Assembly (NCBI GenBank): GCA_963744315.1
Contig: CAVUTB010000008.1
Coordinates: 65,349-129,348 of the forward strand
Direction: 5' to 3'
Source of the DNA: an uncultured Acidobacteriota bacterium
GTDB lineage: Bacteria > Acidobacteriota > Vicinamibacteria > Fen-336
DNA length: 64,000 nt
Every line of letters begins with the position of its first letter. Position 1 is the stretch's first letter. Position numbers and translations under genes: made by a program. Positions 16,912 through 32,948 of the stretch are shown here, piece by piece. The notes below the pieces were generated by a model, which was given only the letters and a program-made list of their open reading frames with translations, was not told the DNA's origin and did not search any database.

Positions 16912-19031
16912 CTAGCGGCGGGCGGTCGGCGTCACGGCGGCCAGCTGCTGCGACTTCTCGTCGTACTCGGCCTGCAGCGCTTCCCACTGCGCCATCAGGT
17001 CGCCCGCCTGCCACATGGCCTTCTGGTGCTCCTCGGCGGCCTGCGCCGCGCGCGCGCGGTCGTCGTAGAAGCCGGGCTCGGCCATCTGCGCTTCGAGCGC
17101 CTTCACCGCCTGCTCGGCCTCGGCGACGCGGGTCTCGAGCTCGGCGAGGCGCGTCTTCATGCGCTTGACCTCGCGCTCGAGCACCTGGCGCTCCGGCAGA
17201 GCACCCGACTGGCGCAGGCGCGGCGCGGAGGTCGGAGAACCGAGAGGAGCCTTTGACGCCGGTGCCGCGACGGCCGTGCGGCTTGGCGGGCCCTCGGCAG
17301 ATTGGCGGGCTTGGGAAGGACCTGGACGAGGACGGCCTGCGCCGCCGTTGCGACCGAGGCGGCGCCATCGTCCAGATCCTCGCGCTTCCGCGTCTGGACT
17401 GGCGGAAGCGCTAGGGGCCCGGCCTCCTGCTGTTTCTTCCAGTAGAGGAAGTCCTCGTAGCCGCCCGGGTAGACGAGCGCTTCGCCGCCGCCGACTTCGA
17501 TCACCTTCGTCGCGAGCTTGTCGACGAAGTAGCGGTCGTGCGAGACGAACACGAGCGTGCCGCCGTAGTCGGCGAGCGCGTCGAGCAGCACTTCCTTCGA
17601 GTCGAGGTCGAGATGGTTCGTGGGCTCGTCGAGCAGCAGCACGTTCGACGACGTGAGCAGCATCTTGGCGAGCGCCAGCCGGTTGCGCTCGCCGCCGGAG
17701 AGCACCGCCACCTTCTTGTAGACGTCGTCGCCCTCGAAGAGGAAGCCGCCGAGGATGCTGCGGATCATCGGAGCCATCGTGAGCGAGCTGGCGGCCGACA
17801 TCTCCTCGACCACGGTGCGCGCGGGGTTGAGCACCGCCGCCTGGTCCTGCGCGAAGTAGTCGAGCACGACCTTGTGGCCTTCGAGCCTCACGCCTTCGTC
17901 GGGACGGTCGATGCCGGCGAGCAGCCGCATCAGCGTCGACTTGCCGGCGCCGTTCGGGCCCACGAGTGCTATGCGGTCGCCGCGCTCGACCATCAGGTCG
18001 AGCTGGCGCAGCACCACGTTGTCGCCGTAGGCCTTGCGCAGGCCCTTGGTCTCGAGCACGACGCGGCCCGGCCGCGGCGCCTCCGGGAAGGTGAAGCGGA
18101 TCTTCTTGCGCGCCGGCGGGATCTCGATGCGCTCGACCTTGTCGAGCTGCTTGATCCGGCTCTGCACCTGCTTCGCCTTGGTCGCCTGGTAGCGGAAGCG
18201 GTTGATGAAGACCTCGGCCTTCTCGATCTCCTCGCTCTGGCGGCGGTGCGCCTCGCGCAGGCGGTCCATGCGCGCCGCGTGCTCGACGACGTAGTGCGAG
18301 TAGTTGCCGTGGTAGTCGGTGAGCGTCTTGAGGCCCACCTCGGTGATGCGCTTCACGGTCGCGTCGAGGAAGTAGCGGTCGTGGGACACCAGCACCACCG
18401 AGCCGGGGTAGTCGGCCAGGTACTCCTCGAGCCAGTTGCGCGCGGGCAGGTCGAGGTGGTTGGTGGGCTCGTCCATCAGCAGCAGGTTGGGCCGCGCCAG
18501 CAGCAGCTTGGCGAGCGCGATGCGCATCTGCCAGCCGCCCGAGAACTCCTCGGTCTTCCTCTGCTGGTCGGCGAGCGAGAAGCCCAGGCCCTTCAGGACG
18601 TCGGCGACGCGCGCGTCGATCTCCCAGCCGCCGAGCTGCTTGAAGCGCTCGGTGACCTCGGCGTAGCGCTCGAGCAGCTTCTCGTGGCCCGCGCCGTCCT
18701 CGGTGGCGTGCGCGAGCGTGTCCTCGATCTCGTGCTGCTCGGCCTTGAGCGCGAGCAGCTCCTGGAACGCGAGCACGACCTCGTCGTAGACGGACCTGCC
18801 GTGGTGGACGATCCCGTCCTGCGGCAGGTACCCGATCGTGGTGTCGGAGGCCATCCGGATCGAGCCCGAGTCGGGCTCCTGCAGCCCCGCCAGCATCTTG
18901 AGCAGCGTGGTCTTGCCGGAGCCGTTCGGCCCCGACAGCCCGATGCGGTCGCGCTTCTTGACGTGCCACGACACGTCCTCGAACAGGATGCGCTCGCCGT
19001 AGCGCTTGTTGAGGCCCTCGATGTGGATCAT
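16912..19031 (-). CDS. ABC-F family ribosome-associated ATPase (Uup/YheS-like), frameshift in C-terminal linker
   Basis: Two ABC domains (GPNGSGKTT, FSGGWQMR, LLMDEPTNHLD; GPNGAGKST, LSGGERNRL), no TM segments, C-terminal coiled coil. Confidence 0.93.
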
Positions 19032-19264
19032 GCGGGGAGGTTCAGGAACTCGAGGCAGGCCTTCTGGATCATCTTCCGGTGCTCGGGCTCCATGAAGTTG
19101 AGGCGGTACTCGTTGATCACCTTGATCTCCATCTCCTCCCATTCCTTCCAGCAGGAGGAGCAGATGCTCGCGGCGATCTTCTCTTTGAGCGCGGGGCCGA
19201 ACGGGATGCGCTTCGCCTCGGGAGCCTCGCCGGACTTCTGGCAGCGCGCGCACGACTCAGGCAT
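19028..19264 (-). CDS. yggX: Fe(II)-trafficking/oxidative damage protection protein YggX-like
   Basis: PFGPALKEKIAASICSSCWKEWEEMEIKVINEYRLNFMEPEHRK; ATGA overlap with ABC-F. Confidence 0.82.
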   Translation of the reverse strand: MPESCARCQKSGEAPEAKRIPFGPALKEKIAASICSSCWKEWEEMEIKVINEYRLNFMEPEHRKMIQKACLEFLNLPA

Positions 19265-19286
19265 CGGGCAACCTCACAAACCTCTC

Positions 19287-19339
19287 ATTATACGTGGCTC
19301 AGGCATGACTTGCGACGATGACAGACCGCCGACCATAAT
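19287..19339. promoter_or_regulatory. Divergent overlapping promoters for yggX and the DEAD-box helicase
   Basis: Minus-strand TATAAT at 19287-19292; plus-strand TTGCGA-N18-CATAAT at 19310-19339. Confidence 0.5.
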
Positions 19340-19351
19340 GCCCGCATCTAT

Positions 19352-20780
19352 ATGGACAGCCCAGCCGGCAAGCGCAGCTTCGCCTCGCTCTCTCTCTCGC
19401 AGGCGACGCTCGGGAGCCTCGAGGCGAAGGGGTACGAGTCCCCGACGCCCGTCCAGGAGGAGTCGATCCCGAAGGCGCTCGCCGGCAAGGACCTGGTGGT
19501 CCAGTCGCGCACCGGCACCGGCAAGACCGCAGCCTTCGGGATCCCGATCGTCGAGAAGGTGGACGCGCAGCGCGACGGCGTGCAGGCGGTGGTGCTCGCG
19601 CCGACGCGCGAGCTCGCGATCCAGGTGGCGCAGGAGATCACGGAGCTCGGCCGCGGCCGGGGCGTGAAGGTGCAGTCGGTCTACGGCGGCGACTCGATGG
19701 AGCGGCAGATCGAGGGCATCCGGGCCGGCGCGCACGTGATCGCCGGCACGCCCGGCCGCGTGCTCGACCACCTGCGGCGCGGGACGCTCGACTTCTCGGG
19801 CGTGCACTTCCTCGTGCTCGACGAAGCCGACCGCATGCTCGACATGGGCTTCGCGGTCGAGATGGGCCAGATCATGGAGTTCGTGCCCGCCGGCGCGCCA
19901 GACGATGCTGTTCTCGGCCACGGTGCCGATCGGCATCCGCGGGCTGATCTACCACTACATGGCCGAGCCCGAGTGGGTGCTGCTCTCCGAGGACCAGATC
20001 TACGTCAAGGAGGTCGAGCACGTCTACTGCCTGACGCCCGCGCCTGCACAAGGAGGCGACGCTCTATCGCCTGCTCGAGTACGAGAACCCGACCTCCTCG
20101 ATGATCTTCTGCAACACGCGCGAGGAGACGCGGCTGGTCTCGACCTTCCTGCGCAACAAGGGCATGGCGGTGGCGATGCTGTCCTCCGACCTGCCGCAGA
20201 AGAAGCGCGAGCAGGTGATGGCGGCTTCCGCGAGGGCGAGATCCGCCACCTGGTCACGACCGACGTGGCCTCGCGCGGGATCGACATCGACGACCTGTCG
20301 CACGTCTTCATCTTCTCGACGCCCGACTCGCCCGAGCAGTACATCCACCGCGCGGGCCGCACCGGACGCGTGGGGAAGAGCGGCCGTGCGGTCAGCCTGA
20401 TCTCGGCGATGGACCTGATGAACTTCAACCGGCTGGTCAAGCGCTACCACGTCGAGGTCAAGGAGATCGCGGTGCCGACCGACGAGGAGGTGCAGGAGCG
20501 CAAGGCCTCGCGCATCGTCGACCTGCTCAGCGAGGCCGGCAAGCGGCTGCCGCTCGAGGACTTCCTCGACCTCGGCCCGGCGGCGCGCGCGATCGCGGCG
20601 CACGAGCTTCGCGATAGGATCGTGGCGCTGCTGCTGCGCGGGCACCTGCAGGAGCAGGTCAAGGCGGCGCCCGACGAGGAGGTCGAAGCGCCGGCCGTGT
20701 CGGAGCGAGGCGGGCCTTCGGGCCCGCCGCATCGGCGCGGTCCCGGCGGTGGCGGCCGAAGGCGGGGCAGGCGCCGCTGA
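19352..20780 (+). CDS. DEAD-box RNA helicase (DeaD/CshA-like), frameshifted
   Basis: Q motif PTPVQ, SRTGTGKT, PTRELA, TPGR, LDEAD, FSAT, TDVASRGID, HRAGRTGR. Confidence 0.93.
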
Positions 20781-20797
20781 AGGGGGCCGAGCCAGCG

Positions 20798-21235
20798 ATG
20801 ACACACGGATACACCGAAGACCTGGCGAGCCGGATGGGCGCGTACCAGGACCGGCTGGAAGAGGCAGCGAAGCGGGGGCCCGCGAACCTGGCCGCCGCGT
20901 TCAACGATCCGCCGCCCGGGCTCGCGTGCCACGAGATCGACACCGAGATGAAGGTGCTGCGCGCGAACGACGCCGACCTGCGCCTGCTCGGCTACACGCG
21001 CGCGGAGTTCGTGGGAAGGCGCGTGCTCGACTTCATCGTGATGACGGAGACGGCCCAGCGTGCGATCGGAAGGAAGCTGACGGGGGAGCTGGCGCTCAAG
21101 CCCTTCGTCCGCACCTTCCGGCGCAAGGACGGCACCGCCGTCGCGCTCGTGCTGCTGGACCGCTACCTGAAGGACGCCTCCGGGCAGGTGATCGGCCTGC
21201 GGACCGTGCTCGCGGAGACCGACGGCGCCAGCTGA
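20798..21235 (+). CDS. Stand-alone PAS-domain protein
   Basis: EIDTEMKVLRANDADLRLLGYTRAEFVGRRVLDF...FRRKDGT...LKDASGQVIGLRTV. Confidence 0.8.
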   Translation: MTHGYTEDLASRMGAYQDRLEEAAKRGPANLAAAFNDPPPGLACHEIDTEMKVLRANDADLRLLGYTRAEFVGRRVLDFIVMTETAQRAIGRKLTGELALKPFVRTFRRKDGTAVALVLLDRYLKDASGQVIGLRTVLAETDGAS

Positions 21236-21290
21236 GGCCGCGCGACCGCGGCGAGGAGAACGTCTGGGGGCCTACTGGCGGTCGGGGCTG

Positions 21291-21507
21291 GTGAAGCTGG
21301 GACTGGCTCTTCTCGTCTTCGGTGTCGGCCCGCTCGTCGCGATCGTCGTCCTGGCGGCGGTCGGCCTCTGGCCGGATCCGAACCCGAACCCGGTCGGTCC
21401 CGGCCTGCTCGCCTGCATGACGTTCTGGCCCGGGCTGATCTGCCTGGTCGTGGGAGCGATCCGCGTCGCGAACCAGGACCGCGGCGGCCGGGCCTCCGCG
21501 CGGCTAG
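21291..21507 (+). CDS. Small two-TM membrane protein
   Basis: Two hydrophobic helices around a PDPNPNPVGPG loop; stop inferred at TAG 21505-21507 after a 1-nt shift. Confidence 0.55.
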
Positions 21508-22550
21508 CGCGCCACCGCCGTGACGCGGCGGCGGAGCCAGCGCTCGAAGAACCAGTTGGCGAGGCGGTAGCCCTCGCCGGCGCGCGCCAGGTAGCCGAGC
21601 ATCGAGAGCCCGTAGAGCGGCGCGTCGAGGTCCTCCTCCGGGCGGCCGAGCGTCCGCGCGAGGCCGCTGCGCGTGCCGCTGCCCTCGCGCGCCACCTCGC
21701 TGAGCGCGTCGCGCTCGACCTGCTCGAGCGTGTTGAAGTCGACGGCGAAGTAGTTGGCCACCATCTCGTCGGCCGCGAGCTGGTCGAGCGTCACCGCGAG
21801 GTCGCGGCTCTCGAACAGGCGGCTCGCGATCAGCTGCACCAGGAACGGGTGGCAGGCGGCGCGCTCGAGCATCGTCTCGACGTCGGCCGGCGGGAAGCCG
21901 CCGCGCGCGAGCAGCGCGCGCCCCTCCTCGGGCATGAGCGGCGTCAGGTAGGTGGGAGGGATGAAGCCCTGCAGGAACGGCGAGGTCGGCAGCGTGGACT
22001 GCTCGTCGACGCGAGCGAGCAGCCGCGTGCCGGTGATCACGGTGCGCACCTCGCTGCCGCGCGAGATCACGCGCCTGAGCCTGGCCAGCACCGAGGCGTC
22101 GGTACGGCCCACCACCAGCAGCTCCTCGGCCTCGTCCACGAGCAGCAGCAGCCGCCAGCCGCTGCGGACCGTGCGGCGCACCAGGCTCGCGAGCATGTCC
22201 GCGACCGGCAGGCTCTCCAGGTCCTCGACCAGCACGTCGGTCGCGCGCCGGAAGGGCTCCGAGTCCTCGACGCTCGCGAGCAGCGTCTCCGCCAGCCCGC
22301 GCGCGTCGCCGCTGCCCTGCAGGTCCCAGTAGAGCGGGACGAACGGCGTGTCGCGGCTCTGCTGCACGCGCAGCTCGACTTCCTTCAGCAGGCTGGTCTT
22401 GCCGAGCCGCCTGCCGCCGAGCACCCAGAGCGAGTGGCGCTCGCCCTCGAGCACCTCGCGCACGAGCCCGTCGCGGCCGAAGAAGTCCTCGCCCCTGACC
22501 CAGCTGCCGGCGATGAAAGGATTGCGTCGCGGTGCGGCGGCCTGCGTCAT
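21504..22550 (-). CDS. Soluble STAND/AAA-type P-loop ATPase with C-terminal winged-helix-like region
   Basis: RNPFIAGSWVRGEDFFGRD, Walker A GGRRLGKTS, YWDLQG, Walker B LLLLVDEAEEL, CHPFLVQ; intact ORF. Confidence 0.88.
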   Translation of the reverse strand: MTQAAAPRRNPFIAGSWVRGEDFFGRDGLVREVLEGERHSLWVLGGRRLGKTSLLKEVELRVQQSRDTPFVPLYWDLQGSGDARGLAETLLASVEDSEPFRRATDVLVEDLESLPVADMLASLVRRTVRSGWRLLLLVDEAEELLVVGRTDASVLARLRRVISRGSEVRTVITGTRLLARVDEQSTLPTSPFLQGFIPPTYLTPLMPEEGRALLARGGFPPADVETMLERAACHPFLVQLIASRLFESRDLAVTLDQLAADEMVANYFAVDFNTLEQVERDALSEVAREGSGTRSGLARTLGRPEEDLDAPLYGLSMLGYLARAGEGYRLANWFFERWLRRRVTAVAR

Positions 22551-22556
22551 GACCGC

Positions 22557-24975
22557 CTAGTCTGCCATAGCCGGCCGCTCGAGGGCGGAAGGCTCGGGCT
22601 CGAGCTGCGTGTCCTCCACGGTCAGCGCCGCGTCGCGCGCGGCGTCCACGTCCTCGAGCCGCACGCTGCTGCGGCCCTGCTCGAGCATGCGGTTGAGCGC
22701 GTGCACGCACAGCTTCTGGACCAGGTACGGCCGCAGCTGCGACAGCTCGAGCACGCGCTCGACGGCCTCGTTCCTCCAGCGGAAGATGCCCGCGACGGGC
22801 TCGCGCACGAGCGCCTCCGCCTCCTCGCGCGAGAAGGCCTTGAGCTCCACCTCGTCGAAGAAGTTGTACCAGGGGCTGACCTCGCTCTTCCAGCGCCGCC
22901 TGATGCCGACACCGCTCATCACCGCCACCAGGTTCTCCGAGAAGCTCTTCATGAAGATCCCGCGCAGGCGCTGGTTGACGCTCTCCGAGTACTCGTTGAG
23001 CACGTCCACCTCGTCGATCAGCAGCGCGAGCTTCACCTTGCGCGGCGTGCGGGTCTTGAGCTCGCGATCACGCGCTGCAGGTCGTGGCTGAAGTCGCGCG
23101 CGTCGTAGCCCTTGACGTCGGGCCCGAAGCGGAGCTGCTCGCGCGTCGCGGGCTTGAGCTCGAGGCTGTCGACGGCCTCGGCGATCAGCGCGTGGAAGAA
23201 GCCCTGCTCGGGAACGCCCTGCAGGTCGACGAACACGGGGAAGAAGCGCCACTCGCCGCCGTCGTCGTCCGCGAGCACGCGCTTCAGGTGATGGAGGAAG
23301 GTGGTCTTGCCGATGCGGCGCTCGCCCGTGATCATCAGGCTGTTGCGGTGCAGCGTGCTCAGCATGCGCGCCGTGAGCTTCTCGCGCCCGTAGAACATGT
23401 CGTCGTCGAGCACGGGCGCGCCCGCGATGTAGGGGTTGAAGCGGCGGCGCCGCGCGCGGCTGCGCCTCAGCATCTGCCCCGCGAAGCCGAGCCCGATCAC
23501 GCTCAGGGCCCCGGCCACGCGCCGCCGGGATGAAGTAGCGGCGTCTCGTGGAAGCGCAGCCGCCGCTCGACCTTGAAGGGCACCGAGTACGACAGCCCTC
23601 CGGTGTCGATCGCCGTCACGACGATCGAGTTCTCGCCGGGCTGGAGCGCGAGCTGCTGGGCGAAGTGGACCATGCGCGCGGGCTGGAGCGGGGTGCTCGC
23701 GGGCAGGAACTCCTCGACCGGCTGCTCGCCCACGCGGAACTCGACCTTCTGCACGCCCTGGTCGTCGCTCGCCGCGCCCTGCAGCGACAGCGTGGGGGTG
23801 TCGAGCACGGGCCCGCCCGGGTCGAAGAGCGCGAGGAGCGGCGGCTGGTTGGGCAGCCAGCGCGCGACGATCGCCTCGCCGGTGCGCCGCTCCGCCTCGG
23901 CCAGCTGCTCGCGCGCGTGCGGGTGGTTGGCGTCGAGCTGCAGCAGGGGCTGCAGCGCCACCTGCGCTTCGGGGAAGCGGCCCGCGTTCAGGAGCTCCTG
24001 GGCGCGCGCCGCGCGCCGGTCGATCTCGGCGCGCTGCTCCCGCTGCAGCCGCAGCCGCTCGAGCGCCTGGCGTGCGCGCGCCAGCAGGTCCTTGGCCTCG
24101 AGGTTCGTGGGGTCGGCCGCGGCGTCGCTCAGCGGAGCGAGCGCGGCCTCGTACTGCCCGCCGTCGAAGAGCGCCTTGCCTTCCGCCAGCTTCTGCTGGC
24201 GCGCGGCGCGCGAGGTCGAAGCCAGGATGCGCTCCTCGGCCTGGCGGCGCCCCTCGAGCGCGCGCGTGTTCCTGGGCGAGAGGTCGAGCGCTCCGTCGAA
24301 CGCGAGCTTGGCCTCGTTGTTCTTGCCTTCCTCGAGCAGGCGGTCGCCGTCGGCCAGGCGCTGCTCCAGCCGCTGCGCGCGAGCCGCCTGGTCCTTCGCC
24401 TCGGCCTGCGCCGTGCGCTGGCGCTGCTGCTCCTGCTGGACCGCCCGCAGCGTGTCGGCGTCCAGGCTCTTGGCGAGCGCCTCGGCCTTCGCCAGCTCGG
24501 GCAGCGACTCGTCCCAGGCGCCCTTCTTGCCGAGCTCCTGCGCGCGCTCGAGGAGTCGCATCGCCTCGCCTTTCGCCCGCCGGGCGCGGCTCGCGGCCTC
24601 CGCGGCTTGCGCCGTGCCGCGGCGCTTCACGAGGTCGTCCATCAGCTCCGTCTTGCGGATGGCGCCCCGCTGCTCCTCGAGGTTGAAGGCCTCGGTGGCG
24701 CCGACGTAGTCCTGCTGCTCGAGCAGGCAGACGCCGAGGTAGTAGTGCGGCAGGTACTCCACGAACTGCAGCCCGTAGGTCTGGACGTTCGTGCCCGAGG
24801 CGGGCCGCAGGCGCAGCGCCTCCTTCACGTTCTTGATGCAGTCGGCCCAGCGCTGGTCGGGGATGTCGTGGTCCCGGGCCTGCAGGTAGTAGTCGTACCA
24901 CTCGCGCGCCGCCCAGGCCGTGCCCGCGAGAGCCGCGGCGAACAGCACGAGCGTGATCCGGGAGCCGGCGCGCAC
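22557..24975 (-). CDS. Membrane-spanning protein: signal peptide, TPR repeats, Ig-like domain, TM helix, cytoplasmic STAND/AAA-type ATPase (two frameshifts near 23530 and 23060)
   Basis: N-terminal signal MRAGSRITLVLFAAALAGTAWA; TPR motifs (YLPHYYLGVCLL, AKLAFDGALDLSP); Ig-like GAASDDQGVQKVEF...LQPGENSIVVTAID; TM VAGALSVIGLGFAG then RRRRFNPYIAGAPV, GERRIGKTT, LLIDEVD. Confidence 0.8.
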
Positions 24976-24978
24976 GAG

Positions 24979-26044
24979 CTACTTCTCGAACATCGCGGCG
25001 ATGTAGGCCCCTCGCGCGGTCGCGGTGAACGGGTCGGTGGCCACGCGGACCTCGGCCACCTCGATCGGGAACGGGCGCGCGCGCAAGCGTGCGCTCGAAC
25101 AGCTCCTTGAAGCCCTTCGGCTTGGCGGTGCCGCCCGCCAGCACGATCGGCAGCGGCCGATCGGTCTTGGGCAGCTTCTCGGCGCGCGAGATCGCGCGCC
25201 GCAGCGTGTCGACGAGCGACTCCACGAGGTCCTCGTAGTAGATGTGGATCGCCTTCTCGAGCTTGTCCTTGGGCTGGCGCGAGAGCTCGAAGCCCTCCTC
25301 CTTGATCACCTTCACGCGCGTGGCGTGCTCGCCGACCGCGTCGCCGACCGAGCGGTCGATGAAGTCGCCGGCCTTCGGCAGCGAGACCATGATCGAGGGG
25401 ATCGAGAGGAACGCCAGCGTCGCATTGCACATGCCGCCGCCGCAGGAGATGCCGATGCCCGTGAAGTTGTGCTGCTCGAGCTCGGCGAAGATCACCGCCA
25501 GGCCCTCGTTGATCGCCATCGCCTTGTAGCCGAGCGCGGTGAAGTGCTGGCGCAGGCTCGCCTCGTGGTAGGTGAGCGACGACTCGCGCCCGGGCGCCGC
25601 GGCCGGCACCGAGAACGAGAGCACCTCGTTCGACGAGCGCGGCTTCGGCACCAGGCTCTGCAGGATCGCCTCCAGCACCGGCCAGGCCTGCTTCTCCTTC
25701 GGGTTCAGCAGGCCGTCGGCCATCGGCCGGCGCGCCTCGGCGTTGAACATGTTCGCGAAGCGCTCGGTGGCCGAGCCGAAGATCACGATCTCGTCGCCGT
25801 CGCGGTAGTAGTGGATGTCGCTCTGCTGCTGGATCGTGCGCTCGGTGACGGGCGAGTAGGGGACGGGGATGAAGGCGTTGAGCTGCGCCTGGCAGGCCAC
25901 CTCCTTGCCGCCCCGCTTCGAGACCACGACCTTGCTGGTCCCGACGTCGATCCCGACCGGGTGCGAGCCGCCCTTGACCAGGTCCTCGATCTTGTCCGCG
26001 GACTCCTCCGGTGCCTTCCAGAGGTGGTCCTTGTTCTCCGCCAT
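24979..26044 (-). CDS. Actin-fold ATPase, volactin/MamK-like (frameshift near 25075)
   Basis: Phosphate-1 GIDVGTSK, connect-1 INEGLA, phosphate-2 GISCGGGMCN, adenosine LAGGTA, connect-2 DPFTATARGA; corrected end AAMFEK* at 24979. Confidence 0.85.
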
Positions 26045-26049
26045 TGGCT

Positions 26050-27427
26050 TTATCCTCCGCTTGCGGCGCGCGCGTCCTGCGCCGCTGCTTTCTCGGCTGT
26101 CTCAGCGTCCTTGGTCAGCTCGGCCAGCCATCGATCGTAGGTCCTGACCCGCTCCATGCGCACGGCCTCGACACCTTGTCCCGAAGCCGCGGCCTCGGAG
26201 GCGAGCGCCGCCTGCGCCGCGATCACGCCCGGCCAGGGCTCGCCCAGCACCGACAGGAAGCGCTCGTCGTACGAGAAGCCGAAGAGCTGCACCGCCGGCG
26301 AGGCCACCCGGTACTGGTCGGGCAGCGAGTACGCGGCGAACGGGAAGCCGCGCGCCCAGTCGAGGTGGTGGCCGATCAGGTGCTTCCTCGGGTTCACGCT
26401 CGCGAGCCCGTGGGTCACGCACATCTCGGGCGCGAGCGACCACTTGTGGCGCAGGTAGTCGGTCAGGCTGCGGCCCGCCTCGAGCTGCGCGCGCGTGATC
26501 GGCAGCGCCGCGCCGCCCTCCCAGCGCGTCTCGTACGAGATCCCGATCGTCGCGCCGTTGAGGTTCAGGTAGAGGCGGTCGCCCGCGCCCCAGACCGACA
26601 GCCCGGCGTGGTTCGCCTTGTGCCTTCTCCTCGACCACGCGGTAGACGCGGCCGAAGCGGTCGATCAGGTAGTGGTAGACCTGGTTGCGCCGCAGGTAGC
26701 GCAGCAGGTCCTGGCTCGAGTCGCGCAGCTTCTCGTTGAACGACTCCTCGAGCGGCCAGATGTCGCTCTCCGAGGTGTGGAAGACGATGCCGACCGGCCG
26801 CTCGAGCACCTCGGCGCCCATCCCGCCGTCCTTCGTGAACGCGCGGTAGCGGCGCGCCTCGCCGCGCACGGCCCAGGTGGTGTCGATGCGCAGGCCGTTG
26901 CTGTAGAGCTCGAAAGCGGCGCCCGAGTCGACGAGCCAGATCCGGTCGGGCGTGCCGCCGCGCGGCGCGTCGAGCGCGGCCTGCGCGGTCGGCCGCGGCC
27001 GCGGTGTCGCCGCCGTGGCTGTGGCTTGCTTCGCCTCGGGGCCGTGCACGCGCGGGTAGCTCGCGAGCGCGAGGCCGGCGGCCGCCATCAACAGCATCGC
27101 CGCGACGTTGACGGTCCGCCGGGCGCGCCGCGGCAGCGGAGGACGGCTGCGTCGCGGCGGGTCGAGCGCGCCCCAGGGGTTGCGCGAGAAGAGCGGACGC
27201 GCCTCCTCGACGCCCGTCAGCCGGTACGCCACCCAGCGCAGCGGCGCGCCGGGAAGCGCCTGGAGGCGCTCGTCGAGCGTCTCGAAGCGGTCGAGCGAGC
27301 GCCGGATGTAGCGCAGCTTCTCGACCGGGTCGCGGATCGTCCGCAACTCGGCCTCGAGGGCCGCGAGCGGCCGGCGTCCGAAGCGAGCCACGCGGGCTGG
27401 CTTGGCTTTCGGGGCGTTCCTGGCCAC
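26050..27427 (-). CDS. Membrane-anchored N-acetylmuramoyl-L-alanine amidase (Amidase_2/PGRP-like), frameshift near 26620
   Basis: IVFHTSE, YHYLIDRFGRVYRVVEE..KANHAG.S.W, IGISYE, ITRAQ, VTHG, HLD; single TM helix after an N-terminal helical domain. Confidence 0.78.
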
Positions 27428-27502
27428 CCGGGCCGCGGACGGCCTCGTCGCGACGGCGCTACGCGGTGGTACAGCTCGCGGCAAACCCCTCTCCGAACGG
27501 GA

Positions 27503-27532
27503 ATTATACGGTTCTGCCGGCGGGACCCACAA
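27503..27532 (-). promoter_or_regulatory. Sigma70-type promoter of the amidase-actin-ATPase operon
   Basis: TTGTGG-N18-TATAAT on the minus strand (perfect -10 at 27503-27508 in very GC-rich DNA). Confidence 0.6.
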
Positions 27533-27603
27533 GGCGGCCGCCTGGGGCACCCGTGGGCCGCGGCGTGCGAGGGGGCATCGCCAAAGAATAGAATCCCCTC
27601 GAG

Positions 27604-27990
27604 ATGACTGCGGGAGTCGGGGCGGGATCGGGACGCGAGGGTCGCCGGGGTCAAAGGACGCCGGTCGACCTGACGGCCGTCGTCGGCGGACGTCAGAAGA
27701 AGAGCGCGCGCGCCCTCGACCTGAGCCTGGTCGGCTGCCTGCTGCGGACTCCGGCCGCGCTCGCGCGCGGCGCGGTGCTCGACTTGACGCTCGAGCTTCC
27801 GGACGGACCGCTGCGCACCAAGGGGCGCGTGGCCGAAGCGTCGATCGACGGCGAGGCGCCTCCCGGCCCGCAGAGCTTCCTCGCCGGCGTCGAGTTCTTG
27901 GCACTCGCCGCGAGCGACGAGACGCGCCTGCGGTCCTTCCTGGACGCCGAGATCAAACGGAGGAGGGTTGAGAACTCGCCCCCTGCGTGA
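27604..27990 (+). CDS. PilZ-domain protein (c-di-GMP receptor)
   Basis: RRGQR (RxxxR) and DLSLVG (DxSxxG) motifs; GVEF strand. Confidence 0.85.
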   Translation: MTAGVGAGSGREGRRGQRTPVDLTAVVGGRQKKSARALDLSLVGCLLRTPAALARGAVLDLTLELPDGPLRTKGRVAEASIDGEAPPGPQSFLAGVEFLALAASDETRLRSFLDAEIKRRRVENSPPA

Positions 27991-28925
27991 GGCCGAGCCG
28001 CGCGAGCTGCGGCCGCTGCTCGACGAGGAGGCCGCGCTCTGGCACTCGGAACTCGGCTGGGACTTCGCGGACGTGCGAGCGGCCGTCTCCGGGGGGATCG
28101 AGCGCGGCAGCCTCCCCGGCCGCGTGGTGGCGGAGGGCAGCCGGGCCGTCGCGTACTGCTACTACATGGTGGATCCCGCGCGCGTGATCGTGGGCTCGAT
28201 CTTCGCGACGCGCGCGCTGCGCGGCCGCGGGCCTCGAGGAGGAGCTGGTCGACGCCGTGATCGAGGACGCCCGCGCCGAGCGCGGCAGCGGGCGCGTCGA
28301 GTGCCAGACGCTCTTCTGCACGGCCGAGGGCGCCGACGCGCGTTTCGCGAAGAAGGGCTTCGCCTCGCGCGCGCGCCACTACATGCGCCGCGGGCTCGAG
28401 GCCGCCGTGCCCGGGAACTCCCGGCTGCCCGCTGGGATCTCGCTGCGGCCGCTCAAGCGCGAGGACCTGACGGCCGCGGCCGAGATCATCTACAAGAGCC
28501 ATCGCGAGAGCGTCGACGCCGCCCTCAACATGACCTACGCGACGCCCTCGACCTGCCGCGCCTTCGTGGAGACGCTGGTGGTGCGCTCGGGCTGCGGGCC
28601 GTTCGACGCGCAGGCCTCGCGCCTCGCCGTCGGCCCCTGGGGGCCGCTCGGGGTGCTGATCGCGAGCCGGCTGTCGCGCAGCAACGGCCACGTCTGCCAG
28701 GTCTCGGTGAGCCCCGAGGCGCAGGGCCGTGGGCTGGGCGCGGCGCTCGTCAACCTCGCGCTCGCGTCCTTTCGCGAGCAGGGCCTCTCGAGCGCGACGC
28801 TCTCGGTGACCGCGTCGAACGAGCGGGCGCACCGGCTCTACGAACGGCTCGGGTTCAGCGTGCAGCGCGCCTTCGCCGCGCACGCGTGGGCGCGGCCGCC
28901 CGCGGCGATCGAGCTCACCGCGTGA
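27968..28925 (+). CDS. Tandem GNAT-family acetyltransferase, frameshifted
   Basis: TTG start after AGGAGG; two GNAT units, C-terminal QVSVSPEAQGRGLG...LSVTASNERAHRLYERLGF. Confidence 0.82.
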
Positions 28926-30142
28926 GCCTCGCAGCGATCCTGGTCGCGGCGGCGCTCGGTGCCCAGGGGGGCGTCGTCGTGCTCCCGCCGACCGGTCCGG
29001 GCGGAAGCGCGCCGGGATGGATCGGCGCTGCCGTCGAGGAGACGCTGCCGCGCGCGCTCCAGCGCGCCGGCGTCGGAGCGCTCGCCGCGAGCGACCGGCG
29101 ACGCGTGCTCGAAGCGCTCGGCATCTCGGGGCCGGTCGCGAGCCACGCGACCGGCATCCGCATCGCGGAGGCGGTCGGGGCGCGCCTGCTGGTCTTCGGC
29201 TCCTGGGACCTCGCGGGGACCGAGCTCACGATCACGCTGCGTCCGCTCGACACGGGCACGGCCGCGCTCGGGCCCGAGCGGAAGGCCGGGGGCCCGCTCG
29301 ACAGCGTCGGCCGCATGATCGAGGAGCTCGCCCGCAGCCTCGCGGGCGCCTCCGCGTCTCCGAGTCGCGAGGGAGTGGTGGTCGCCGCGGCAGCCGTGCC
29401 GTTCGCGGCGCTGCGCGCGCTCGGCGAGGCCCTGATCGCCCGCGACGCCGAGACGCGGATCAAGGGCCTGCGCCGCGCGCTCGCCGTTCACCCGCGCTAC
29501 GCGGACGCGACGCTCGTCCTCGCGCGGCTGCTCTACGACACGGGGCGCTACGCGGAAGCACGCGAGGCGCTGGTGGCGCTTGCGCCCGGCCCGCCCTTCG
29601 CGCGCGAGGCGCGCTTTCTCGAGGGCGCGTGCCTGCTGGGGCTCGGGCGCGCCGAGGAGGCGGACGTGCTCTACGCCGAGCTCGCCGCACAGGACGCGAC
29701 GGCCGGCGTCCTCGCCAACCGCGGCGTAGCGCGGCTGCGGCTGATGCCCGCCGCCTCCGGTGCGTCGACGCTCGTGCGCCAGGCGCTCGATCGCTCGCCG
29801 TACGCGGCGGACCTGCCGTTCGACCTCGGCTGGGCGCTGCTGGTGGAGGGCGACCTCGAGGGGGCCGTCACCTGGCTCAGGACCGCCGTGCGGTACGCGC
29901 CGAGCGACGCCAAGGCCCGCATCGCGCTCAGCTGGGCGCTGCGCCGCTCGAATCACGCGGAGGAGGCCGACGAGCAGTGGCGCGCCGCGGCAGCGCTCGA
30001 CCCGTCGCTCGAGGCGCAGAGACTCGGCAGCCCGGCGCAGCGGCTGGAGCGCGTGCTGCCGTCGGAGGCCGCGCTCGTGATCGACAGCGCGCGCGCGCAG
30101 GACGCGCGCGGAGAGGGGCGGCGCGGCAACGGAAGGCGCTGA
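28922..30142 (+). CDS. Exported TPR protein with N-terminal TolB-N/FlgO-like domain
   Basis: Hydrophobic N-terminus, ARLLVFGSWDLAG, multiple TPR motifs (HPRYADA, DLPFDLGWAL, APSDAKA). Confidence 0.7.
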   Translation: MSLAAILVAAALGAQGGVVVLPPTGPGGSAPGWIGAAVEETLPRALQRAGVGALAASDRRRVLEALGISGPVASHATGIRIAEAVGARLLVFGSWDLAGTELTITLRPLDTGTAALGPERKAGGPLDSVGRMIEELARSLAGASASPSREGVVVAAAAVPFAALRALGEALIARDAETRIKGLRRALAVHPRYADATLVLARLLYDTGRYAEAREALVALAPGPPFAREARFLEGACLLGLGRAEEADVLYAELAAQDATAGVLANRGVARLRLMPAASGASTLVRQALDRSPYAADLPFDLGWALLVEGDLEGAVTWLRTAVRYAPSDAKARIALSWALRRSNHAEEADEQWRAAAALDPSLEAQRLGSPAQRLERVLPSEAALVIDSARAQDARGEGRRGNGRR

Positions 30143-30163
30143 GCGCGCTGCTATCATGGGCTC

Positions 30164-30793
30164 ATGAGCCTCGTACCACTCGGGCTCGCCCTCTGGCTCG
30201 TCCAATCGACCGCGCCCACCGCCGCCGCCCGGCCGAAGGCCCCGGAAGGCCTGAGCTGGGAGGACTCCGACCAGGTCGCCGAGACGGTGGCGCGCCTCGA
30301 GCGTCGGCTGAAGGCCGGCAAGCCCGCGTCGCGCGAGCCGATCACGGTGAGCGAGCGCCAGGTGAACTCGTACGTCACGCTCGCGCTCGGCCCGAAGCTG
30401 CCGCCGTCGGTCTCCGGCCTGAGCTTCCGCTTCGAGCCCGAGCGCCTCGCGGCGACCGGCATGCTCGATCTCGACGCGGTACGGGAGAAGCTGCCGAAGA
30501 CCGGCGCGAGCACGCTGCTCTCGTTCCTGAGCGGGACCGTGCCCGTCGCGCTCAAGGGCCGCTTCCAGGGTGCGTCGGGCCAGGGCCAGGTCGTGGTCGA
30601 GGAGGCCGCCGTCGCCGGGATCTCGCTGCCGCCTGCGATGCTGTCCCAGATCGTGGCGCAGGCGACGCGCAGCTCGAAGAAGCCCGCGGGCTTCGATCTC
30701 CTCGCGCCGTTCCCGCTGCCCTGGACGGCTCGCAGCGTACGGCTCGAGGCCGGCCGCGCCGTCGTGGAGTTCGCGCAGGAGCCCGTCCGCTAG
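30164..30793 (+). CDS. Conserved hypothetical exported protein (possible tubular lipid-binding-like fold)
   Basis: Intact ORF, signal peptide, ITVSERQVNSYV...GISLP...FPLP..RSVRLEAGRAVV. Confidence 0.65.
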   Translation: MSLVPLGLALWLVQSTAPTAAARPKAPEGLSWEDSDQVAETVARLERRLKAGKPASREPITVSERQVNSYVTLALGPKLPPSVSGLSFRFEPERLAATGMLDLDAVREKLPKTGASTLLSFLSGTVPVALKGRFQGASGQGQVVVEEAAVAGISLPPAMLSQIVAQATRSSKKPAGFDLLAPFPLPWTARSVRLEAGRAVVEFAQEPVR

Positions 30794-30857
30794 CAAGGCG
30801 CCGGTCCGAGCGGGACGGACCCGGGGGCGCCGCGCGGCGTGGCAAGATCGGCGGCGA

Positions 30858-32948
<2,091 letters not shown>

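Follow-up and report, generated by a model that had tools for sequence, protein, structure and literature searches.

A predicted transmembrane receptor ATPase and its paralogous partner ATPase: a candidate outside-in signalling module in Acidobacteriota

Here we analyse a gene carried by a stretch of 64,000 nucleotides (nt) from an uncultured soil Acidobacteriota bacterium (assembly GCA_963744315.1, contig CAVUTB010000008.1, positions 65,349 to 129,348 of the forward strand; this whole stretch is hereafter called the window). The gene is predicted to encode a single-pass membrane receptor with a sensor-like ectodomain and a cytoplasmic ATPase, and it is followed directly by the gene for a second, paralogous ATPase, which we call the partner. 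The reading that we favour, and to which we would give a probability of roughly 0.55, is that the two ATPases form an outside-in signalling module and that the breaks in the receptor's reading frame are assembly errors. A preliminary description made from the window sequence alone had placed the gene at 22557-24975 and had ordered its product as signal peptide, tetratricopeptide repeats (TPRs), immunoglobulin-like (Ig-like) domain, transmembrane helix, arginine-rich stop-transfer and ATPase, and both the coordinates and the order agree with the sequence and with the homologues. The features of the gene are given below in amino acids (aa) and nucleotides, with values taken from AlphaFold2 (AF2) models and their predicted local distance difference test (pLDDT).

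24975..22557, minus strand: receptor ATPase gene, start codon GTG at 24975, stop codon TAG at 22559-22557
24910..24975, minus strand: predicted Sec-type signal peptide, aa 1-22, MRAGSRITLVLFAAALAGTAWA, cleavage predicted after AWA, then AREW
23854..24909, minus strand: predicted extracytoplasmic TPR-like helical-repeat domain, aa 23-374, all-helical in AF2 at pLDDT ~90
23551..23853, minus strand: juxtamembrane Ig-like beta-sandwich, aa ~375-475, AF2 strands at 381-472 with pLDDT ~85
23468..23541, minus strand: predicted transmembrane helix (R)YFIPAAVAGALSVIGLGFAGQML, holding two spurious bases (~23541 and ~23519), AF2 helix at 482-508
23441..23467, minus strand: basic stop-transfer and juxtamembrane linker RRSRARRRR, from the sequence and homologue charge counts
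22560..23440, minus strand: cytoplasmic AAA+ ATPase, nucleotide-binding domain and four-helix lid, from AF2, Foldseek and profile search, one base missing at ~23063
23420-23440, minus strand: NPYIAG motif (FNPYIAG), from the sequence
23300-23326, minus strand: Walker A motif GERRIGKTT, from the sequence
23216-23233, minus strand: DLQG motif, from the sequence
23004-23030, minus strand: Walker B motif LALLIDEVD, from the sequence
22857-22877, minus strand: SPWYNFF motif, from the sequence
22713-22733, minus strand: lid motif RPYLVQK, from the sequence
~23541: frame break of +1 in the receptor gene (GAGAC-G-CCGC), from DNA alignment to contig L088
~23519: frame break of +1 in the receptor gene (GGCG-C-GTGG), from DNA alignment to contig L088
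~23063: frame break of -1 in the receptor gene (ATCGC_GAGCTC), from DNA alignment to contig L088

Once these three 1-nt breaks are joined (the preliminary description had counted two), the gene is one reading of 805 codons. Frame 1 extends from the GTG at 24975 to FKVERRLRFHET, frame 2 contributes a first stretch of only seven codons (RYFIPAA), frame 0 continues from VAGALSVIGLGFAGQML through RRSRARRRRFNPYIAG...GERRIGKTT to ...DLQRVIA, and a second stretch of frame 2 leads from ELKTRTPRKVKLALLIDEVD to the stop. The two insertions are separated by 22 nt and between them put the opening third of the transmembrane helix into a third frame. Using the joined protein as query we found 744 homologues, the best 120 of which are nearly all 790-812 aa long and covered over their full length, the closest (P0001) having 805 aa and 95% identity. 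Homologues read ...RLRFHETRYFIPAAVAGA(M/L)SVIGLGF... across the first junction and ...DLQRVIAELKTRT... across the second, and because intact homologues of 801-812 aa are abundant, the single open reading frame assumed earlier is real in the relatives. Contig L088, a Joint Genome Institute short-read contig that served as reference for a base-by-base alignment, shares 96.2% identity with the window along 15 kb, and all its genes are intact. Relative to it the window presents ten frame-breaking 1-nt indels in 13.4 kb, distributed across six genes (recG +1; GNAT +1; amidase +1; volactin +1; receptor +1, +1 and -1; DEAD-box helicase -1, +1 and +1), and comparison of the window genes at the protein level gave the same pattern. 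Since the indels hit many window genes that are intact in L088, and since the source genome comes in 20 contigs with an estimated completeness of only 66%, we conclude from these comparisons that the receptor breaks are errors of an unpolished long-read assembly rather than pseudogenisation, and that the real product has 805 aa. The opposite view, that the three breaks of the sequence as given are genuine and denote either a decaying pseudogene or separate secreted TPR and cytoplasmic ATPase proteins, is hardly credible: in the 59 genomes examined from this family, splits of the gene are confined to further assemblies with few contigs and low completeness, short-read assemblies having it intact, and the two indels 22 nt apart restore the frame of a conserved transmembrane helix. 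Over window positions 17400-32400 we counted 8 insertions and 2 deletions, mostly adjoining G/C, and any reading of this genome at the level of open reading frames therefore needs frameshift-tolerant methods.

Analysis of the joined protein and its relatives supports a type I single-pass membrane protein with the ectodomain outside and the ATPase inside, as had been predicted. A hydrophobic N-terminal leader precedes an invariant REWYDYY in 41 of the 46 close homologues, the other five being called from a later start, and these leaders show a basic n-region, a hydrophobic core of 12-15 residues and usually a small-x-small end. Only one hydrophobic segment comes after the leader, at 480-503, and at the aligned position 36 of the 46 homologues reach the hydropathy cut-off; the 15 residues that follow it in the scored homologues include 6-9 lysines or arginines and not a single aspartate or glutamate. 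Hydropathy and charge in the 46 homologues thus agree with the transmembrane helix of the AF2 model on a leader plus one membrane helix with the positive side inside, and the signal peptide and transmembrane predictions of the preliminary description hold, as does its sensor-outside, ATPase-inside layout, which the transmembrane helix ahead of the NPY motif in most members of the wider family also supports (see below). As the ATPase depends on the ATP of the cytoplasm and two hydrophobic stretches stand between it and the N-terminus, the TPR-like and Ig-like domains must be extracytoplasmic. The N-terminal module of the ectodomain is conserved (WYDYY...YLPHYYLGVC), with a beta-hairpin and two invariant cysteines, C47 and C84, and the confinement of this invariant pair to the ectodomain fits an oxidising compartment.

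The full-length AF2 run, for which the 46 close homologue sequences were used, gave a confident model of residues 30-475 (pLDDT ~90), in which the helical-repeat domain includes three helices of ~40 residues. Foldseek relates this helical part to consensus-TPR, P58IPK and OGT TPR structures (probability 1.0, E down to 2e-6), the TM-scores being low because several of the helices are ~40 residues long. Pfam TPR matches on the window protein were all under the cut-off, so that the many TPRs proposed earlier are best called TPR-like on the basis of the model. The Ig-like domain resembles FnIII-like CbhA modules and SoxYZ folds; a Big_7 match on the window protein is weak and under the cut-off, PF17957 being precomputed on homologues. 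Foldseek with the full-length model yielded generic TPR and Ig matches only, with no hint of a ligand.

The receptor ATPase comprises ~290 aa, and its GERRIGKTT and LLIDE motifs are invariant among the homologues. Its region was poorly modelled in the full-length run (pLDDT 27-80), whereas an ATPase-only run fed with 107 sequences (60 receptor ATPase domains and 47 partner ATPases) reached a pLDDT of 86 and a predicted TM-score of 0.83, with a P-loop core built of five strands, a lid of four helices and a tail that is disordered; no winged helix was found in the receptor ATPase of this model. Foldseek placed 2qen (PAB2304), archaeal Orc1/Cdc6, eukaryotic ORC1, RuvBL and RFC at the top, and no structure of an NLR, Apaf-1, MalT or Avs protein appeared among the top 50 matches. 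By sequence profile the best match in the Protein Data Bank is 2fna, with the SP...F and L.PF..EEA motifs aligned, and the closest solved structures, 2fna and 2qen, are therefore ATPase_2 members that share these motifs with the receptor. Pfam gives the window protein sub-threshold matches to AAA_16, AAA_22, nSTAND6 and nSTAND1 (nSTAND1 16.0 bits against a cut-off of 27.1, nSTAND6 17.0 against 27.7, NACHT 13.5), and the window fragments have no match to ATPase_2 (PF01637, gathering score 33.2 bits). Relatives reach higher values, both for nSTAND1 (P0228 28.5 and P0176 26.8 bits) and for ATPase_2 (P0137 33.9, P0237 40.9 and P0216 32.5 bits), and PF01637 is precomputed on many Chloroflexota members of the ATPase family.

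The preliminary description had called this domain STAND-type (signal transduction ATPases with numerous domains), a label that proves loose, if not mistaken in kind. STAND NTPases descend from the Cdc6/Orc clade (PMC8195603), and of the features set out by Leipe et al. (2004) the receptor has the Cdc6/Orc-related P-loop with Walker A and Walker B. The tripartite module of nucleotide-binding, helical and winged-helix domains is absent from it, a winged helix being present only in the partner, and there is no C-terminal repeat sensor in the same compartment, the TPR-like and Ig-like domains being N-terminal and across the membrane. With its sub-cut-off Pfam scores and with ATPase_2 and Orc1/Cdc6 as closest relatives, the receptor ATPase is, as judged from models and profiles, an ATPase_2-like AAA+ module of the Orc1/Cdc6 type on the border of STAND, having neither winged helix nor C-terminal sensor.

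The gene that follows the receptor encodes the partner.

21504..22550, minus strand: partner, a soluble paralogous ATPase of 348 aa with a C-terminal winged-helix-like domain, beginning 6 nt past the receptor stop

The paralogy is seen in the profile alignment of the partner with receptor residues 515-779 (hhalign probability 99.4, E 1e-21). The partner matches 2fna along its whole length, winged helix included, its residues 268-325 have weak matches to MarR and Z-alpha winged helix-turn-helix domains, and the STAND protein PH0952 is matched weakly as well, over its helical and winged-helix part. In a survey of 80 receptor loci from species-representative genomes the partner was directly downstream of the receptor in 75 and at a distance of 2.4 kb in another, the contigs of the remaining four ending too early to judge. 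The pairing spans Vicinamibacteria, Holophagae, Thermoanaerobaculia and Sulfomarinibacteraceae, with a partner present wherever the contig has room. In the most distant members (34-38% identity; Holophagae, Thermoanaerobaculia and Sulfomarinibacteraceae), in whose high-GC loci genes were called by an open reading frame filter based on GC3 (GC content at third codon positions) as the raw listing was too noisy, the partner reaches ~640 aa, with a kinase domain of the Hanks type at its C-terminus (Pkinase E 1e-45 to 2e-52 in six loci). This domain keeps the VAIK, HRD, DFG and SPE motifs and hence looks like an active Ser/Thr kinase. That no effector domain is evident, as stated earlier, remains correct for the receptor protein itself but not for the pair, as the adjoining partner has a winged helix and distant partners a Ser/Thr kinase; we propose that the output missing from the receptor may lie in this next gene.

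Further evidence comes from the wider family. Of the 4766 cluster representatives that an exhaustive HMMER search recovered, 411 have E<1e-30, and in Acidobacteriota and Chloroflexota the family amounts to hundreds of clusters at 50% identity. Its ATPase of ~275 aa is always C-terminal, the N-terminal parts varying from 0 to 1100 aa. We surveyed the topology of 131 cluster representatives, of which 118 have the NPY motif, and in 106 of these 118 a transmembrane helix lies 9-23 residues before the motif and is joined to it by a linker rich in lysine and arginine. Long members carry Reg_prop beta-propellers and a Y_Y_Y domain, the latter at the position of the Ig-like domain, and are abundant in Chloroflexota (Caldilineae, Ca. 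Amarolinea). Reg_prop and Y_Y_Y make up the periplasmic sensor of Bacteroides hybrid two-component systems. A partner orthologue follows or lies near a Reg_prop-type receptor in two Chloroflexota loci, and in one of them (L090) it aligns with the partner profile through the winged helix (hhalign E 8e-54). One soluble variant has REC and PAS domains in place of the ectodomain and transmembrane helix. The chassis of Ig-like domain, transmembrane helix, basic linker and NPY-AAA+ ATPase thus forms with the partner a conserved module whose inputs and outputs are interchangeable, and this combination is the signature of a signal-transduction system.

The distribution of the receptor is narrow within the phylum and nearly complete within the window's own family, where it was found in 54 of 59 genomes, in 26 of 26 high-quality genomes and in 24 of 25 genera. 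Only four of 201 genomes sampled across the phylum have it, and in that sample it was not found in other families of the same class. Pairwise mean identity within the family is 0.59-0.65 for the ectodomain, 0.85 for the nucleotide-binding domain and 0.90 for the linker plus NPY motif, which is the most conserved segment of the receptor. This profile, with a variable ectodomain and a conserved linker and nucleotide-binding domain, is receptor-like.

In the window the receptor and its partner close a run of four tightly spaced minus-strand genes, identified by six-frame translation, whose first two members are the following.

26089..27373, minus strand: membrane-anchored Amidase_2 (peptidoglycan amidase), first gene of the operon, from tblastn to the L001 amidase, with a spurious +1 at 26622
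24979..26044, minus strand: volactin-family actin homologue of 354 aa (PF25216, E 7e-70), with a spurious +1 at 25085

The volactin stop lies 3 nt ahead of the receptor start. An intact orthologue of the amidase matches PF01510 at E 1.4e-11, with gene calls in L001, L002 and L088. Amidase_2 and volactin are directly upstream of the receptor on the same strand in 48 loci; in 7 loci they are divergent and 2.3 kb off, followed by a PF00144 gene (beta-lactamase/DD-peptidase-like). In this opposite-strand subclade (L047:6-1295 (-), L049, L050, L055, L068, L072 and L077) a gene for a TPR protein lies between the two units. Neither amidase nor volactin was found within 6 kb of the receptor in 9-10 distant loci. 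An obligate co-occurrence of volactin and receptor throughout the phylum was considered and rejected, strong matches to both coinciding only in the window's own family; because they coincide only there, actin-amidase and receptor-partner are to be regarded as separate modules that one family has joined in a single operon.

Placing these results into a mechanism, we suggest the following sequence of events. A cleaved signal peptide would export the TPR-like and Ig-like domains to the periplasm, where a ligand or a state of the envelope would alter how the ectodomain and transmembrane helix pack or oligomerise. Through the invariant juxtamembrane segment RRFNPYIAGxPV this change would reach the receptor ATPase and affect its nucleotide state or its self-association, and the ATPase might then join the partner ATPase in an ATP-dependent hetero-oligomer, the partner delivering the output through its winged helix or kinase. 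In the window's family the probable output would be control of the volactin cytoskeleton and cell-wall-cleavage unit. The comparisons show the integrity of the gene in relatives, the architecture, the fold class, the paralogy, the obligate pairing, the exchange of ectodomains and outputs and the phyletic pattern. The direction of signalling, the oligomerisation and the link to volactin and amidase we infer from architecture and gene context, and several observations weigh against the reading as a whole. The ATPase is unusually conserved, which equally fits a structural or assembly role. The window's own partner has no recognisable enzymatic output. A single transmembrane helix is a weak conformational conduit, so that the mechanism must rest on oligomerisation. 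Among the 201 genomes two have the receptor without volactin (G010 and G119) and three have volactin without the receptor (G016, G050 and G198), and the link of the receptor to actin and amidase is lineage-specific and may be only positional. A broader proposal, that receptor-partner pairs constitute a separate modular class of transmembrane signalling systems that here connects the state of the envelope to volactin and amidase, is tentative and we would give it less than even odds. Such a class would stand alongside histidine kinases, Hanks kinases, chemoreceptors and anti-sigma factors, its swappable parts being the ectodomain (TPR, beta-propeller/Y_Y_Y or none) and the partner output (winged helix, kinase or other extensions).

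The main rival explanation reverses the direction of action. In an inside-out or assembly machine the ATPases would position or activate the periplasmic amidase, in the manner of FtsEX-EnvC, or would anchor or regulate volactin, in the manner of RodZ-MreB, and the TPR/Ig ectodomain, instead of sensing a ligand, would serve as a scaffold in contact with wall enzymes. The tight operon of four genes with gaps of 3-7 nt in the 48 loci speaks for such a machine, as does the subclade of broken gene order, which keeps amidase and volactin within 2.3 kb and gains the PF00144 gene; the long helices of the ectodomain resemble EnvC-type regulators, the cytoplasmic domain is extremely conserved and the gene is core in the family. 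The receptor-partner pair nevertheless occurs without volactin or amidase in Holophagae, Thermoanaerobaculia, Sulfomarinibacteraceae and Chloroflexota, and the Reg_prop/Y_Y_Y ectodomains, the REC and PAS domains and the kinase output of the relatives form a pattern that points to an inward flow of information. We accordingly consider an inside-out machine unlikely.

A role in biological conflict is more improbable still. Here a membrane-tethered, STAND-like sensor/helper pair, comparable to Avs or to two-gene nSTAND systems, would detect an invader at the envelope and trigger an effector, a scheme consistent with the weak nSTAND1 and nSTAND6 matches, with the fusion of SIR2_2, nSTAND1 and the family ATPase in homologue P0237, with the prediction of two-gene paralogous STAND systems as counter-invader systems (PMC8195603), and with a partner kinase that resembles the generic defence kinases in PADLOC. 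Membership in a known defence system was examined against PADLOC-DB 2.0 and rejected: no model matches receptor or partner beyond the P-loop (matches of P-loop length, E ~2e-4), and the only strong matches concern the generic kinase domain of the distant-clade partner. The receptor is moreover single-copy and vertically inherited, found in each of the family's 26 good genomes at a syntenic position that stays fixed among housekeeping genes, its ectodomain is moderately conserved rather than hypervariable, and a toxic effector is absent in this lineage. Being core in the family, flanked by housekeeping neighbours (recG, a DEAD-box helicase and an ABC-F protein) and devoid of a PADLOC match, the receptor gene would serve a lineage-specific core function and not be a mobile defence gene.

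Returning to the outside-in module that we favour, its parts can be compared with known systems. ATPase_2 (PF01637; 2qen PAB2304, 2fna SSO1545) and Orc1/Cdc6 provide the best structural match (Foldseek E 3e-9, TM-score ~0.6), and they share with the receptor the N-terminal F.GRE, Walker A and B, the SP...F after strand 4, the L.PF..EEA lid start and the four-helix lid. That group's known proteins are soluble and for the most part archaeal, and they act in DNA replication or have no assigned function, whereas the receptor is tethered to the membrane by an N-terminal transmembrane helix, has a large ectodomain and a paralogous partner, and is devoid of the winged helix. With STAND NTPases (MalT, Apaf-1/NLRs, Avs, nSTAND1 PF20703) it has in common a repeat sensor coupled to a P-loop switch of Cdc6/Orc descent, and the gene pair recalls NAIP-NLRC4, plant sensor/helper NLRs and the predicted two-gene nSTAND2 systems (PMC8195603); unlike them it has its sensor N-terminal and across the membrane, with no winged-helix or MHD-type module and no effector. 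In overall layout the receptor is comparable to receptor histidine or Ser/Thr kinases and to the Bacteroides Reg_prop plus Y_Y_Y hybrid sensors (for example, BT4663), which likewise consist of signal peptide, periplasmic sensor, Ig-like domain, one transmembrane helix and cytoplasmic transmitter, and whose ectodomain is exactly that of the Chloroflexota family members. The difference is that the transmitter is an AAA+ ATPase instead of HisKA/HATPase_c or a kinase, the proposed step being hetero-oligomerisation and not phosphotransfer. FtsEX-EnvC-amidase and RodZ-MreB similarly couple a cytoplasmic ATPase or actin, via a membrane protein whose periplasmic domain is helical, to peptidoglycan hydrolysis, but they are related to the receptor neither in sequence nor in fold (FtsE is an ABC ATPase and RodZ an HTH protein), and the association with actin and amidase is here limited to one acidobacterial family.

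A literature search found no paper on a transmembrane ATPase_2/STAND receptor of this orientation or on such a two-gene module. The published record deals with STAND sensors in the cytosol, with transmembrane NTPases of the KAP and YobI types and with two-gene nSTAND2 systems, and where Kaur et al. (2020/2021) and Doré et al. (2024) mention membrane-associated or periplasmic sensors, it is in other STAND contexts only. What appears to be new is hence the predicted transmembrane, two-protein arrangement of an Orc/Cdc6-STAND-type signalling ATPase. If the module acts as we propose, it would be a widespread and unstudied route for passing information across the bacterial membrane, in which an Orc/Cdc6-STAND-like ATPase switch stands in for the kinase of classical receptors and the NLR-like logic of sensor plus helper is extended to extracytoplasmic sensing. 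It would also give the poorly understood ATPase_2 family a function-bearing context and offer a handle on what bacterial volactin-type actin and its partner amidase respond to.

Some additional observations concern the family and its gene neighbourhoods. A stand-alone soluble paralogue of the receptor ATPase (G000:C19:104563-105399 (+), locus L006; ~280 aa, 43% identity) keeps KRRFNPYIVG in a protein with neither transmembrane helix nor ectodomain, and its neighbours are unrelated. Homologue P0237 (1173 aa) unites SIR2_2, a full nSTAND1 module and the family ATPase module in one polypeptide, a defence-like fusion from which it follows that the ATPase module is used in conflict-type proteins too. 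A sugar oxidoreductase of the GFO/IDH/MocA type lies just upstream of receptors in four loci (L073:2592-3710, L078:2011-3036, L089:4828-5877 and L091:1446-2462) belonging to three unrelated lineages, namely Sulfomarinibacteraceae, the Reg_prop-type Chloroflexota and the REC-PAS type; the Chloroflexota copy sits amid genes for a DegT aminotransferase, a hexapeptide transferase and a glycosyltransferase, and this hints at a link of these receptors to envelope glycan synthesis. Near the Reg_prop-type receptors of two Chloroflexota genomes we also observed proteins of 912-923 aa with a C-terminal ILEI (FAM3-like) domain (L089:2048-4819 and L090:1732-4467). In the window, a small PilZ-domain gene at 27664-27984 (+) is divergent from the operon, a position kept in ~30 related loci, and it may bring a cyclic di-GMP input to the shared promoter region.

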